Positions 3,355-6,312 of a DNA stretch of 11,411 bases are shown here, piece by piece; position 1 is the first letter of the stretch; every line of letters begins with the position of its first letter. This DNA is from a virus (taxonomy: Duplodnaviria > Heunggongvirae > Uroviricota > Caudoviricetes): positions 1 to 11,411 of the IMG/VR virus record IMGVR_UViG_2713896907_000009. One strand, 5' to 3'. The notes under the pieces were generated by a model. It made no database searches. It saw nothing but the letters and a program-made list of their open reading frames with translations, and was not told the origin of the DNA. A program made the position numbers and the translations under genes.

Positions 3355-4140
3355 TTACTTGATAAATCCTGCCGCCTTTCCCCGCCTGTATTCCTCCATC
3401 AGCCACTGCGCTGGTGTTATTCCCCCAAGGGTGGCGGCGTTAGGCATGCACCCGAAACTTCGCCCTGATGGATGGTAAACGTCTCTCCCTGTGTCCGGAG
3501 GTGTACTCATGGGCTCTGGCTTTGCCTGTATGCTGATCACCGGCTCGGGTATCTGCTGTCCGGAAGCCACCTTTTTCGCCCAATCATCGAGCAGCCTGCG
3601 CGCGTGTTTCTCAACCTCAATCTCGCTAAGCTGGCGCTGATACATTGCACGGCGGGTATCACATACGACCCAGTACATAACCGGATGCCGCCACGGGAAT
3701 CTTTCGGGACCACCAGGATATAAACTTTTTTCCTTGCTGTACCGGTGAAACTCCGCCATCACATCGTCAATGGTGACGCCAAGAACCATCTTGCTGTCTT
3801 TACACCACTTGATGAATTGCCCTGGCGACGGCCAGAACGGAGATTCACTGGCGCGGGCGTGGCGCATACCAGCAGAAACCTGTTCACGGGTTCGGATCCC
3901 CCCTTCGGCAAACGCAGCAATCCACTGCTGTTTTGCAGCAACTTCCTGCTCTGGCGTCTTCAGGTTGGTTACCACTGCCGCCGGAAACAGTTGTTTCAAC
4001 TGTTTGAAAAGGGCATCAACAAGCCTCTCTGCTGACATGTTCACCACGTTGTCATTGTTAGTGTACTGATGCTCATAACCTGACATGCGAGAAAGGGCTT
4101 CTCCGTCACGGTTTTGTATCGCGGTAAAAACGTTGTTCAC
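3355..4140 (-). CDS. Replication protein P-like (helicase loader, lambda P family)
   Basis: ORF 3355-4155; segments PFWPSPGQFIKWC, SLYPGGPERFPWRHPVMYWVV and QIPEPV match lambda P as I recall it (PFLPSPGQFVAWC, GLYPDAESYPWKSNAHYWLV, AIPEPV). Start placed at GTG 4140-4138 (GGGAGGA SD 6 nt upstream), overlapping the upstream stop as GTGA. Confidence 0.7.
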   Translation of the reverse strand: MNNVFTAIQNRDGEALSRMSGYEHQYTNNDNVVNMSAERLVDALFKQLKQLFPAAVVTNLKTPEQEVAAKQQWIAAFAEGGIRTREQVSAGMRHARASESPFWPSPGQFIKWCKDSKMVLGVTIDDVMAEFHRYSKEKSLYPGGPERFPWRHPVMYWVVCDTRRAMYQRQLSEIEVEKHARRLLDDWAKKVASGQQIPEPVISIQAKPEPMSTPPDTGRDVYHPSGRSFGCMPNAATLGGITPAQWLMEEYRRGKAAGFIK

Positions 4141-4976
4141 AAGAAATCCTCCCATGCTTCAGGGCTGTTCCAGTGCGGAACGTTGTTATCAGGTAATGTT
4201 GATTGCTTCTGTCTGCTAATCTGCAGCCGCCTTGCCAGCTTCTGCTCCCACTGTGCCTGATGGTATGCCTTACCCTCAGCCATCCAGTAAATTCTGAACT
4301 CTGCAAGTTCCTGTGCCGTTGGCAGACTGTCCAGGTAGATCCCCTGCAATGAGCTTTTCCGAAGAAAGTCATCTGATGGCTGCCATTGTTCATGCATGAC
4401 AAATTTGCCTAATTGCCCTGGCCCACCAGGAGGAACAAAGTTATTCATCACGGCGTTGTTTGCGCCGGGGTCATGAGGCACAGAATCCCCGGCTTTTGTC
4501 CTGCTCTCCCTCTCTTGGTTAAATGACTGGTTATATGACTGGTTCTGGATCCCGTTTTTGGGATCATTCAACATCCCGTTTTTGGGATCATTCAACATCC
4601 CGTTTTTGGGATCATTCAACATCCCGTTTTTGGGTATATTCCCGTTTTCGGGAACATTACCGTTTTCGGGTTCATTGCTCCATTCCCGGTTGCCTTTAAT
4701 GTTCCCGTTTTTGGTTATATTAAGAGAGAAAACCCGCACTCTTTTCGTCGCTCCCTTTCTCTCTCCGGTATCTGAAATAAGCCCCATTTTCATGAGCGAT
4801 ATAAGCCCGGCCTGTACGGTTTTTTTATTCAGGCAAGTGTCTTTAACGAGGCGTTCTATGCTGGGGTAGCAGAGGTTATATTCATCGGCTCTGTCAGCCA
4901 TCGAGAGCAGTATGAGCTTTAATGACGAGCTACCCGGATCTGTCTCCCAGGCCCAATCTGTTGCATGTCTGCTCAT
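4137..4976 (-). CDS. Replication initiator, O-like (N-terminal DNA-binding domain, Asn-rich repeat linker encoded by iterons, C-terminal domain)
   Basis: ORF 4137-4976, ATG 4976 with GGAG SD. Sits immediately upstream of and coupled to the P-like gene. Contains in-frame 8-aa repeats (PKNGMLND x3) encoded by 24-bp direct repeats, as lambda O contains ori. C-terminal region resembles DnaT/O-type replisome-organiser domains (from memory, unverified). Confidence 0.65.
   Translation of the reverse strand: MSRHATDWAWETDPGSSSLKLILLSMADRADEYNLCYPSIERLVKDTCLNKKTVQAGLISLMKMGLISDTGERKGATKRVRVFSLNITKNGNIKGNREWSNEPENGNVPENGNIPKNGMLNDPKNGMLNDPKNGMLNDPKNGIQNQSYNQSFNQERESRTKAGDSVPHDPGANNAVMNNFVPPGGPGQLGKFVMHEQWQPSDDFLRKSSLQGIYLDSLPTAQELAEFRIYWMAEGKAYHQAQWEQKLARRLQISRQKQSTLPDNNVPHWNSPEAWEDFL
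4547..4700. repeat. Iteron array: three perfect 24-bp direct repeats (4561-4632) flanked by degenerate copies; putative phage replication origin inside the O-like gene
   Basis: ggatcattcaacatcccgtttttg repeated exactly at 4561-4584, 4585-4608 and 4609-4632; partial or degenerate copies at 4547-4560 and 4633-4700. Each unit contains the inverted repeat GGGAT/ATCCC. Confidence 0.6.
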
Positions 4977-5026
4977 GATTAATCTCCGCTATCAGCTTGA
5001 ATGTTGTGGGGAGGAATTAATCATGA
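4973..5026. repeat. Inverted repeat (11-bp perfect arms, extendable to about 15 bp) bracketing the O-like start codon and SD
   Basis: tcatgattaat at 4973-4983 and its reverse complement attaatcatga at 5016-5026. The left arm contains the O-like ATG (4976-4974) and is adjacent to its GGAG SD. Confidence 0.5.
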
Positions 5027-5192
5027 TCTGCTTAATCTCTGCCCTGATGCGACGGTTTGATTCCATGGTGCACTCAACACAGTGTCCGTTGTAAACCCAG
5101 CGTTCACTGTCATGTCCGTGCTTACATGGTTTTCCGGTGTAGTAGCGTTTAAGTCCGCGCTTTGCGGCATCAATACGTGTAATGATTTCCAT
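4992..5192 (-). CDS. Small zinc-finger protein (66 aa), function unknown; occupies the position downstream of cro
   Basis: ORF 4992-5255; start assigned to internal ATG 5192 (MEIITRIDAAK...) because the N-terminal extension MIFFLCQHKITVIPILITGLT looks non-coding and runs into the intergenic terminator region. Product has C-x-H-x-H ... C-x2-C spacing (KPCKHGHDSERWVYNGHCVEC). Confidence 0.45.
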   Translation of the reverse strand: MEIITRIDAAKRGLKRYYTGKPCKHGHDSERWVYNGHCVECTMESNRRIRAEIKQIMINSSPQHSS

Positions 5193-5290
5193 GGTAAGCC
5201 CCGTTATTAGTATTGGGATTACGGTTATTTTGTGCTGACACAAAAAAAAGATCAACCAGATTTGGTTTTTTATTACCTTTGAGGTGCGAA

Positions 5291-5321
5291 TAGATATGAA
5301 AAGACCGCCGAGTGGCGGTCT
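5291..5321 (-). terminator. Putative intrinsic terminator downstream of the Cro-like gene (tR1-like position)
   Basis: Perfect 8-bp GC-rich stem agaccgcc / ggcggtct (5302-5309 and 5314-5321) with 4-nt loop; on the minus strand it is followed by TTTTCATATCT. The T-tract is short (4 T), so efficiency is uncertain. Confidence 0.4.
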
Positions 5322-5342
5322 ACAGAGGGTTGTGGCTGGATA

Positions 5343-5573
5343 TCATGAGTAGAAGAAGTATGCCAGTTCTGCTTTTGAGCGCAGCCATTGTCTTGTTTTA
5401 CAGGCTTTAAAAAGCCCATTCATCAATACCTTACCTGGCATTTTGCGCTTACCTGTTAAGTGAGTCTGGATATAGTGACTCGTCGTTCCGGCTTCCTGTG
5501 CGAAGGCTTCACGCTCATCTGGAGTAAGTGCAAGCCAGTGCTTTTTGAAATCGAAATGTCCGTTATCGCTCAT
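5343..5573 (-). CDS. Cro-like small HTH DNA-binding protein (76 aa)
   Basis: ORF 5343-5573, divergent from the repressor gene across an operator-containing region. Segment EAFAQEAGTTSHYIQTHLTGKRKMPGK resembles the HTH of Cro/YdaS-type proteins. SD is weak. Confidence 0.5.
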   Translation of the reverse strand: MSDNGHFDFKKHWLALTPDEREAFAQEAGTTSHYIQTHLTGKRKMPGKVLMNGLFKACKTRQWLRSKAELAYFFYS

Positions 5574-5608
5574 AGCTATTGCCTGATATTTATTTCAGAT
5601 AATAAATA

Positions 5609-5672
5609 TTCACCCATAAGGTAACAAAAATCAAGGATAGTTACCTATGGGGTGCATTTACCTGTTGGGTAA
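5609..5672. promoter_or_regulatory. Divergent promoter/operator region between the Cro-like and repressor genes with three operator-like sites
   Basis: Sites at 5609-5623 (TCACC CATAA GGTAA), 5641-5655 (TTACC TATGG GGTGC) and 5658-5672 (TTACC TGTTG GGTAA, perfect) in an AT-rich 154-bp intergenic region; -35-like TTGATT on the minus strand. I could not place the -10 elements confidently. Confidence 0.5.
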
Positions 5673-5727
5673 TATTGCTTTAAATTGAATCATCTACTGA
5701 TTCATATATGAGGCGATTTTCCAGAAA

Positions 5728-6312
5728 ATGAAAAGTATCCAGGACGTCCGCAGGCAAAATCTCAACGACTTGATCGACCGTGAATTCAATGGTGTTCAGA
5801 CGCGGATGGCAGAAAAACTTGGAACTCAGGCAAATCTGGTAAACCGCTGGGCTCTTGGCAAGAAGGTTATCGGCGACCAGGTTGCGCGAAAAATTGAAGC
5901 TGCCGCCAATAAACCCCGTAACTGGCTTGATATCGATCGCTCGCTTTCTCAGGAAGGTTTTCAGCCTGTCGGACCAAGCGACATTGGTCAGCTGGCGGCT
6001 CACAACCTGGAACGCTGGATGAGCGAAAGCCGCGACCTTTCAACGCAGGGAAAACTTCACCGCGCATCCGGCGTCGCCCAGGTGACAATCAGCCGCCTGT
6101 TAAACAATGAGGTCAGCGTTTCCATTTCCACCCTGGAGAATGTTGCATCAGCATTCGGGCGTCACGGATATGAACTACTGATTCACCCACACGACCCTGC
6201 GACTATCAACTATGACCGCTCGCGCTACGCTTTGTTACCCGAAACCGAGAAAGCAAAGATCGAAAGTTACATTGAATTTGTCATCAACCAGAACGAAAAA
6301 AACAAACAATAA
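5728..6312 (+). CDS. Phage repressor-like protein with two tandem XRE-type HTH domains and no S24 peptidase domain
   Basis: ORF 5728-6312. HTH 1 about aa 25-70 (VQTRMAEKLGTQANLVNRWALGKK...); HTH 2 about aa 105-150 (LHRASGVAQVTISRLLNNEVSVSISTLENVASAF). C-terminus has no Ser/Lys dyad or Ala-Gly cleavage context. Flanked on both sides by TTACC-N5-GGTAA sites. Confidence 0.65.
   Translation: MKSIQDVRRQNLNDLIDREFNGVQTRMAEKLGTQANLVNRWALGKKVIGDQVARKIEAAANKPRNWLDIDRSLSQEGFQPVGPSDIGQLAAHNLERWMSESRDLSTQGKLHRASGVAQVTISRLLNNEVSVSISTLENVASAFGRHGYELLIHPHDPATINYDRSRYALLPETEKAKIESYIEFVINQNEKNKQ

Follow-up and report, generated by a model that had tools for sequence, protein, structure and literature searches.

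The window analysed here is an 11,411-nt stretch of DNA whose segment from position 4100 to 5400 is 95–97% identical to Escherichia phage phiV10 and its relatives. To judge from this similarity, the window is a phiV10/epsilon15-like prophage (Uetakevirus, epsilon15-like podoviruses) of E. coli, and the 351-bp gene junction considered below is present, at an identity of at least 95%, in 424 of 5426 complete E. coli genomes (about 8%). A phiV10-like early/replication segment that is 95–96% identical to the window is also found in the GenBank records PP488543.1 (phage BP9, 138 kb, Vequintavirus) and PP350014.1 (phage PH444, 115 kb). Both records represent large lytic-type phages, and in that of BP9 the segment is located near the end of the record; these two segments look like the result of chimeric assembly or prophage contamination.

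Gene order and the inverted repeat

The leftward early operon was read with the help of the phiV10 annotation and of Pfam and PHROG scans; the repeat, the gene layout, the predicted fold with its energy, and the taxonomic distribution were all computed in the present work. In the direction of transcription, the following features are of relevance.

5343–5573, minus strand: Cro-like regulator gene (phiV10 annotation, Pfam/PHROG)
5302–5321, minus strand: intrinsic terminator (terminator scan; annotated in phiV10 as well)
4992–5192, minus strand: Zn-finger gene, 66 aa, homologue of phiV10 gp42 and epsilon15 gp40 (PHROG 1081)
5016–5026, minus strand: upstream (5') arm of the repeat, UCAUGAUUAAU, in Zn-finger codons 56–59 (last two bases of I56, then M57, I58 and N59)
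5015–5014, minus strand: 2-nt bulge UC, as seen in the predicted folds
5010–5013, minus strand: anti-SD CUCC, within Zn-finger codons S60–S61, predicted to pair with the initiator SD past the bulge
4989–4994, minus strand: end of the Zn-finger gene with tandem in-frame stop codons (TGA TAG), which lie in the hairpin loop, 15 nt ahead of the initiator AUG
4984–4987, minus strand: Shine-Dalgarno (SD) sequence GGAG of the initiator gene, 7 nt before the AUG, paired in the predicted extended stem
4973–4983, minus strand: downstream (3') arm of the repeat, AUUAAUCAUGA, comprising the SD-AUG spacer, the initiator AUG (4976–4974) and the first base of codon 2
4137–4976, minus strand: replication initiator gene, 279 aa, with an N-terminal HTH_36 and a C-terminal DnaT domain (PHROG 1032)
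3355–4155, minus strand: lambda-P-like gene, overlapping the 3' end of the initiator gene

The terminator is a strong one, with an 8-bp stem that contains six G-C pairs and is followed by a T-run, and it separates the Cro-like gene from the Zn-finger and replication genes. Since it lies upstream of the Zn-finger gene, the Zn-finger/initiator pair is placed behind a transcriptional gate, and expression of the replication genes probably needs read-through or antitermination. The Zn-finger protein matches no Pfam family, and the PHROG search assigns it to phrog_1081, a group of unknown function; its gene and that of the initiator are in the same reading frame. The labels "Zn-finger" and "O-like", which a preliminary description had given to these two genes from the DNA letters alone, are reasonable in the light of the phiV10 annotation and of the domain scans.

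The perfect 11-bp inverted repeat that had drawn attention to this junction is present as described. Its arms, TCATGATTAAT at 4973–4983 and ATTAATCATGA at 5016–5026, are complementary in 11 out of 11 positions and lie 32 nt apart, and they do bracket the end of the Zn-finger gene and the beginning of the initiator gene, the TGA stop codon (4994–4992, followed in frame by TAG) being located in the loop and the ATG in the left arm. Read as mRNA, the 3' side of the stem begins with the SD sequence GGAG, continues with AUUAAUC and ends with the AUG and the base next to it. From dinucleotide-shuffled versions of the window, the expected number of perfect inverted repeats with arms of 11 nt or more and loops of at most 60 nt is 0.17, versus two that were observed, the second being a pair of oppositely oriented origin iterons; the 11-bp repeat is thus uncommon, not extraordinary, and it was singled out post hoc. 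Both arms are composed of two palindromic hexamers, TCATGA and ATTAAT, so that each arm resembles the other in both orientations and such a repeat arises more easily around ATG codons.

The iterons just mentioned form an array within the initiator gene (4525–4722) that consists of about seven copies of the 24-nt unit ATCCCGTTTTTGGGATCATTCAAC, some of them at an 18-nt spacing. Each unit holds the internal palindrome CCCGTTTTTGGG, and two inverted units make up the second perfect 11-nt inverted repeat of the window (4649–4659 and 4697–4707). The array encodes PKNGMLND peptide repeats, which form the linker between the HTH_36 and DnaT domains, and it resembles a lambda-style origin lying within the initiator gene. 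The junction itself also carries a direct repeat: in the sense of the mRNA, GCAGAGATTAAGCA in the AEIK codons of the Zn-finger gene and GCGGAGATTAATCA at the initiator ribosome-binding site (5029–5042 and 4976–4989, respectively) are 86% identical at a distance of 53 nt, a microhomology that may have been left by, or may be usable for, module exchange.

Predicted structure of the leftward transcript

According to the preliminary description, the upstream arm can pair in the leftward mRNA with the segment that holds the SD sequence and the start codon of the initiator gene, and folding of the minus-strand transcript was named there as the way to check this. Such a hairpin, in which the upstream arm is paired with the initiator SD, the spacer and the AUG, is predicted in every fold that we calculated, in the MFE as well as in the centroid structures of transcripts of 91, 130 and 301 nt. 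The further claim that the stem extends to about 15 bp across a 2-nt bulge is likewise borne out by the predictions, as CUCC (5013–5010) pairs with the SD sequence GGAG (4987–4984) in the MFE and centroid structures of the 91-nt and 301-nt transcripts. The initiator SD and start codon are consequently embedded in a stable predicted secondary structure whose complementary strand lies in the upstream open reading frame, in codons 56–59 (the arm) and 60–61 (the anti-SD) of 66, an arrangement that is looked for in a translational coupling element.

For the isolated hairpin, an energy of -14.6 kcal/mol is predicted. The calculated probability of being unpaired is 0.00 for the initiator AUG and amounts to a mean of 0.16 over the SD region. 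Opening of the region from -15 to +5 would cost 13.4 kcal/mol, versus 6.95 +/- 2.1 kcal/mol when the 70 nt upstream are dinucleotide-shuffled; the ribosome-binding site is thus predicted to be about 6 kcal/mol harder to open, and the real value is equalled by 1% of the shuffles. Among the 15 gene starts in the window, that of the initiator has the highest opening cost, if only narrowly, as four others range between 11.1 and 12.8 kcal/mol. The fold of the whole segment on the mRNA strand is unremarkable (z = -1.5). A function as an RNA thermometer was rejected: between 25 and 45 °C the predicted stem does not melt, the pairing probability of the AUG staying at 1.00 throughout and the opening cost going from 15.9 to 11.9 kcal/mol.

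Variation of the junction among related phages

About 380 loci of the phiV10 clade, all of them at least 95% identical, were collected from IMG/VR, GenBank phages and metagenomes. This set shows no change in either arm, with the exception of L395, in which a C to U change in the arm keeps a G.U pair, and of the recombinant L006/L272 (see below). Given the high identity of the clade members, this invariance is statistically uninformative; about three variable sites would be expected in the arms and one was observed, a difference that is not significant. Uncompensated variants of the CUCC:GGAG extension (TCCACC, TCCCCC and GTAG) occur in a few loci. The last of these, a change of the initiator SD from GGAG to GTAG at the equivalent of window position 4986, is found in L043, L244 and L327 (IMG/VR), which may represent a decaying or attenuated prophage lineage. 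A scan of metagenomes mostly returned further phiV10-clade loci and added three informative variants (L395, L390, L398).

More divergent relatives with the same layout fall into four clades: clade B (L178-like), the L179/L183 variants, Superficieibacter electus (L169; clade C) and L194 (clade D). All four have a homologous Zn-finger tail, the 15-nt gap and an initiator beginning with MSRHAT, just as in the window, and none of them contains the 11-bp repeat, which in its full form is, among the sequences compared, confined to the phiV10 clade. The preliminary description had made its proposal depend on conservation of the repeat in homologous prophages; this expectation holds in part, as the 11-bp repeat is gone in the four diverged clades and a core of 6–8 bp has been kept. 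In clade B this core consists of the 8-bp pairing GCUCAUGG:CCAUGAGC between the region of the Met57 codon and that of the initiator start, while L169 and L194 have a weaker core pairing with wobbles; what the diverged relatives have in common is a UCAUG:CAUGA core that joins the Met codon to the start codon. RNAalifold recovers the 6-bp core alone, and this pairing of Met codon and start codon is retained in all of the 16 distinct junctions. However, Met57 is conserved also in phages with unrelated downstream modules, and the core pairing is therefore largely an automatic product of two CATG motifs.

Covariation was seen for one base pair, which is A-U in the phiV10 clade, G.U in S. electus and G-C in clades B and D (8, 1 and 7 of the 16 junctions, respectively). 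This represents a single evolutionary event, and the overall covariation is not clearly above that of shuffle and slide controls. The occlusion of the ribosome-binding site was also compared with that of shuffled sequences: the real value is reached by 1% of the shuffles for the window, 3% for clade B, 15% for L179, 46% for S. electus and 65% for L194, so that the predicted occlusion exceeds the random level in the window and in clade B and does not do so in L179 or in clades C and D. Between the phiV10 clade and clade B, the substitutions are concentrated in the two arm regions, where they affect 10 of 21 and 8 of 15 positions, and the 15-nt loop between these regions is identical. This clustering is suggestive of a co-evolution of the arms; mosaic exchange is equally compatible with the aligned sequences. 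Neither a tblastn search of phage records nor a scan of GTDB genomes yielded a closer relative of the initiator in a different upstream context.

The sibling uetakeviruses epsilon15, Tyrion, BUCT554 and BUCT711, together with ST512-KPC3phi13.3, carry the same Zn-finger gene at the same position of the operon as the phiV10 clade, and the outcome is presumably the same, with translation of the downstream gene being tied to that of the Zn-finger gene. Their downstream genes differ, encoding another type of initiator, a methyltransferase or a metallophosphoesterase, and in contrast to the phiV10 clade these phages have neither an intercistronic gap nor the 11-bp repeat. Instead, the Zn-finger stop codon overlaps the next start codon, as TGATG in Tyrion, BUCT554 and ST512-KPC3phi13.3, and as ATGA in BUCT711 (metallophosphoesterase) and epsilon15 (methyltransferase); in TL-2011b there is a longer overlap. 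As such overlaps occur whatever the downstream gene, translational coupling behind the Zn-finger gene would seem to be the norm, and it is the phiV10 clade and clades B–D that stand apart from the siblings by their 15-nt gap and separate SD sequence. In TL-2011b (L166, 1655–1690), the unannotated Zn-finger homologue has a TTG start and shares about 20 nt with the beginning of the initiator gene; directly upstream of the initiator SD lies a small hairpin (CTTGTGCAC...GTGCAAG), a different local structure at the same junction.

Nucleotide homology to Tyrion and to the Klebsiella phages stops at window positions 5022–5049, inside or beside the upstream arm, and the last ten or so Zn-finger codons therefore belong to the downstream module. 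A recurrent mosaic joint is found at the Met57 codon (window 5016–5030; L003, L168, L006), and two alleles of the Zn-finger core, one Tyrion-like and one BUCT554-like, are joined to several tails and downstream modules. In the natural recombinant L006/L272, the joint coincides exactly with the arm; owing to a 1-nt insertion at the joint, the Zn-finger protein is truncated by a TAA within the arm (...EIKRIID*), and a stem of 8 bp is left.

Possible functions of the repeat

We suggest that the repeat is an "RNA unfolding" element for the translational coupling of the initiator gene, a reading in which we place about half of our confidence and which starts from the predicted fold; RNA unfolding is probably combined here with termination-reinitiation. 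The site of action would be the leftward early mRNA of the phiV10-like prophage. As long as no ribosome is translating the 3' end of the Zn-finger gene, codons 56–61 would pair with the SD, spacer and AUG of the initiator gene, and the resulting stem of 11 bp plus 4 bp (about -14.6 kcal/mol) would keep free 30S subunits off this gene. A ribosome moving over the last ten Zn-finger codons would unwind the upstream arm and terminate within the loop, at a UGA that precedes the AUG by 15 nt. The SD and AUG would then be unpaired and open to reinitiation by this ribosome or its 30S subunit, or to initiation by a newly arriving one. Synthesis of the initiator would in this way be both tied to, and capped by, translation of the Zn-finger gene, which itself would depend on read-through of the upstream terminator, and the hairpin's own contribution would be to suppress independent initiation on the initiator gene. 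Formation of the hairpin in vivo, its blocking of independent initiation, the size of this effect and selection for it are inferred, the support for selection being weak. The suggestion in the preliminary description that initiator translation is coupled to that of the upstream gene is plausible, as it fits the geometry of the junction, with the stop codon in the loop at 15 nt from the AUG, and the ATGA and TGATG overlaps of the sibling phages; at this stop-to-start distance, however, termination-reinitiation could couple the two genes without any hairpin.

According to the main competing explanation, the repeat is real and yet was not selected: it would have arisen incidentally at a mosaic joint between the conserved core of the Zn-finger gene and a tail that is specific to the module and carries the initiator ribosome-binding site; any coupling would then proceed by termination-reinitiation over the 15-nt gap, and the hairpin would add a modest, unselected drag. 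We regard this as possible, if somewhat doubtful. The self-complementary hexamers TCATGA (around each ATG) and ATTAAT make such a repeat likelier to begin with, the homology to Tyrion and the Klebsiella phages ends at the upstream arm, and the joint of the L006/L272 recombinant falls exactly on it; the absence of the repeat from clades B, C and D, the random level of occlusion in clades C and D, the similar occlusion of other gene starts in the window and the uncompensated changes in the extension all point in the same direction. Nevertheless, the expected number of perfect repeats of 11 bp or more is 0.17 per window and this one falls exactly on the SD and AUG, the substitutions relative to clade B cluster in the arms (10/21 and 8/15) around an identical 15-nt loop, and a stem of -14.6 kcal/mol over a ribosome-binding site should affect initiation whether it was selected or not. 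As to how the repeat originated, template switching at a quasi-palindrome could yield the 11 perfect bases, but it fails to account for the 2-nt bulge and for the substitutions beyond the arm (TCCTCCCCA versus GCCAGCCTG).

Functions at the level of the DNA or of the opposite strand fit the data far less well. The arms, 43 bp apart from centre to centre, might serve as sites for a phage or host protein (an operator, autoregulation by the initiator, a part of the origin) or extrude as a cruciform, and a symmetric repeat beside replication genes whose initiator has an HTH domain does invite this idea. Yet a search of the window at up to two mismatches turned up no third copy of the motif, save for a match at a different start codon that is at the level of chance; the arms are related neither to the iterons in the initiator gene (CCCGTTTTTGGG units) nor to the annotated epsilon15 repressor operators (TTACCATTTTGGTAAT), and the repeat has not been kept by relatives that have this initiator. 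With a motif that does not recur in the manner of iterons or operators, we consider a DNA-level role very unlikely. Even less credit is due to a function of the plus strand, be it an OOP-like antisense RNA over the 3' end of the Zn-finger gene, as the preliminary description had envisaged, or a real 23-codon gene (5023–5094). The mirror SD-ATG GGAGGAATTAATCATG (5010–5025) and the 23-codon frame behind it are certainly present, the SD-ATG is canonical, and the plus-strand RNA folds somewhat better than that of the minus strand (-24.5 kcal/mol, z = -2.7). A consensus-based scan of 4700–5750, in which weak promoters may be missed, nonetheless revealed no promoter- or terminator-like site on this strand, an Rfam search at E <= 1 gave no match near the repeat, and there are no plus-strand genes upstream. 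Moreover, the SD sequence is missing in clades B–D and is altered from GGAGG to GGTGG in some phiV10-clade variants; its confinement to the phiV10 clade agrees with the earlier suspicion that the mirror-image start is incidental. The encoded peptide, MICLISALMRRFDSMVHSTQCPL, is antisense to a conserved coding region, which makes its own apparent conservation uninformative. The likeness to the lambda OOP RNA of the cII-O junction is one of map position only, at the junction of the initiator gene and the gene preceding it: unlike in lambda, no opposite-strand promoter or terminator was found in the region scanned, the upstream gene encodes a Zn-finger protein rather than cII, and there is no match in sequence or family.

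Two further candidates were discarded. A fusion of the two proteins by stop-codon readthrough was rejected in view of the tandem TGA TAG of the phiV10 clade and the TAA of S. electus. The loop might also be regarded as an invertible segment, as a flip of its 32 nt would join the Zn-finger and initiator frames; the approximately 380 related loci all have the same orientation.

Hairpins that mask a ribosome-binding site are a recognised mechanism of translational coupling, and cases of coupling by RNA unfolding include genes VII/IX of phage f1, the coat-lysis and coat-replicase pairs of MS2, and rpmI-rplT of E. coli (PMC12548453). The junction described here resembles these systems in that the downstream SD and AUG are, by prediction, paired with the preceding cistron, to be opened by the ribosomes translating it, so that the downstream gene would be silent alone. 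It differs from them in being a short local hairpin (11 + 4 bp with a loop of 22–32 nt) that is known from sequence and prediction, in the position of the stop codon, which lies within the loop and only 15 nt before the AUG so that the share of scanning or reinitiation in the coupling may equal that of unfolding, and in the restriction of the full stem to one near-clonal phage clade. The hairpin would best be viewed as one clade's version of an established form of translational control and not as a new mechanism.

A broader and in our view improbable proposal is that the last ten or so Zn-finger codons and the intercistronic region constitute a portable "coupling adaptor" that moves together with the respective replication module and of which the phiV10 clade has evolved a hairpin form. 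This proposal builds on the joints at the Met57 codon in Tyrion-, BUCT711-, epsilon15- and phiV10-type phages and in the L006 recombinant, and, with regard to the hairpin form, on the paired bursts of substitutions in both arms around an unchanged loop. Each module would thereby bring along the device that makes its translation dependent on the conserved Zn-finger gene upstream, and if this were true, the junction would show translational insulation being selected for in nature at the boundaries of phage modules.

If the repeat functions as an RNA-unfolding coupling element, the amount of initiator in phiV10-like prophages would be set by the translation of a small Zn-finger gene, and a translational layer would be added to the lysis-lysogeny and replication decision in this group of phages. 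Such a layer would also be of relevance to the engineering of phiV10 reporter phages and to the re-annotation of the operon.
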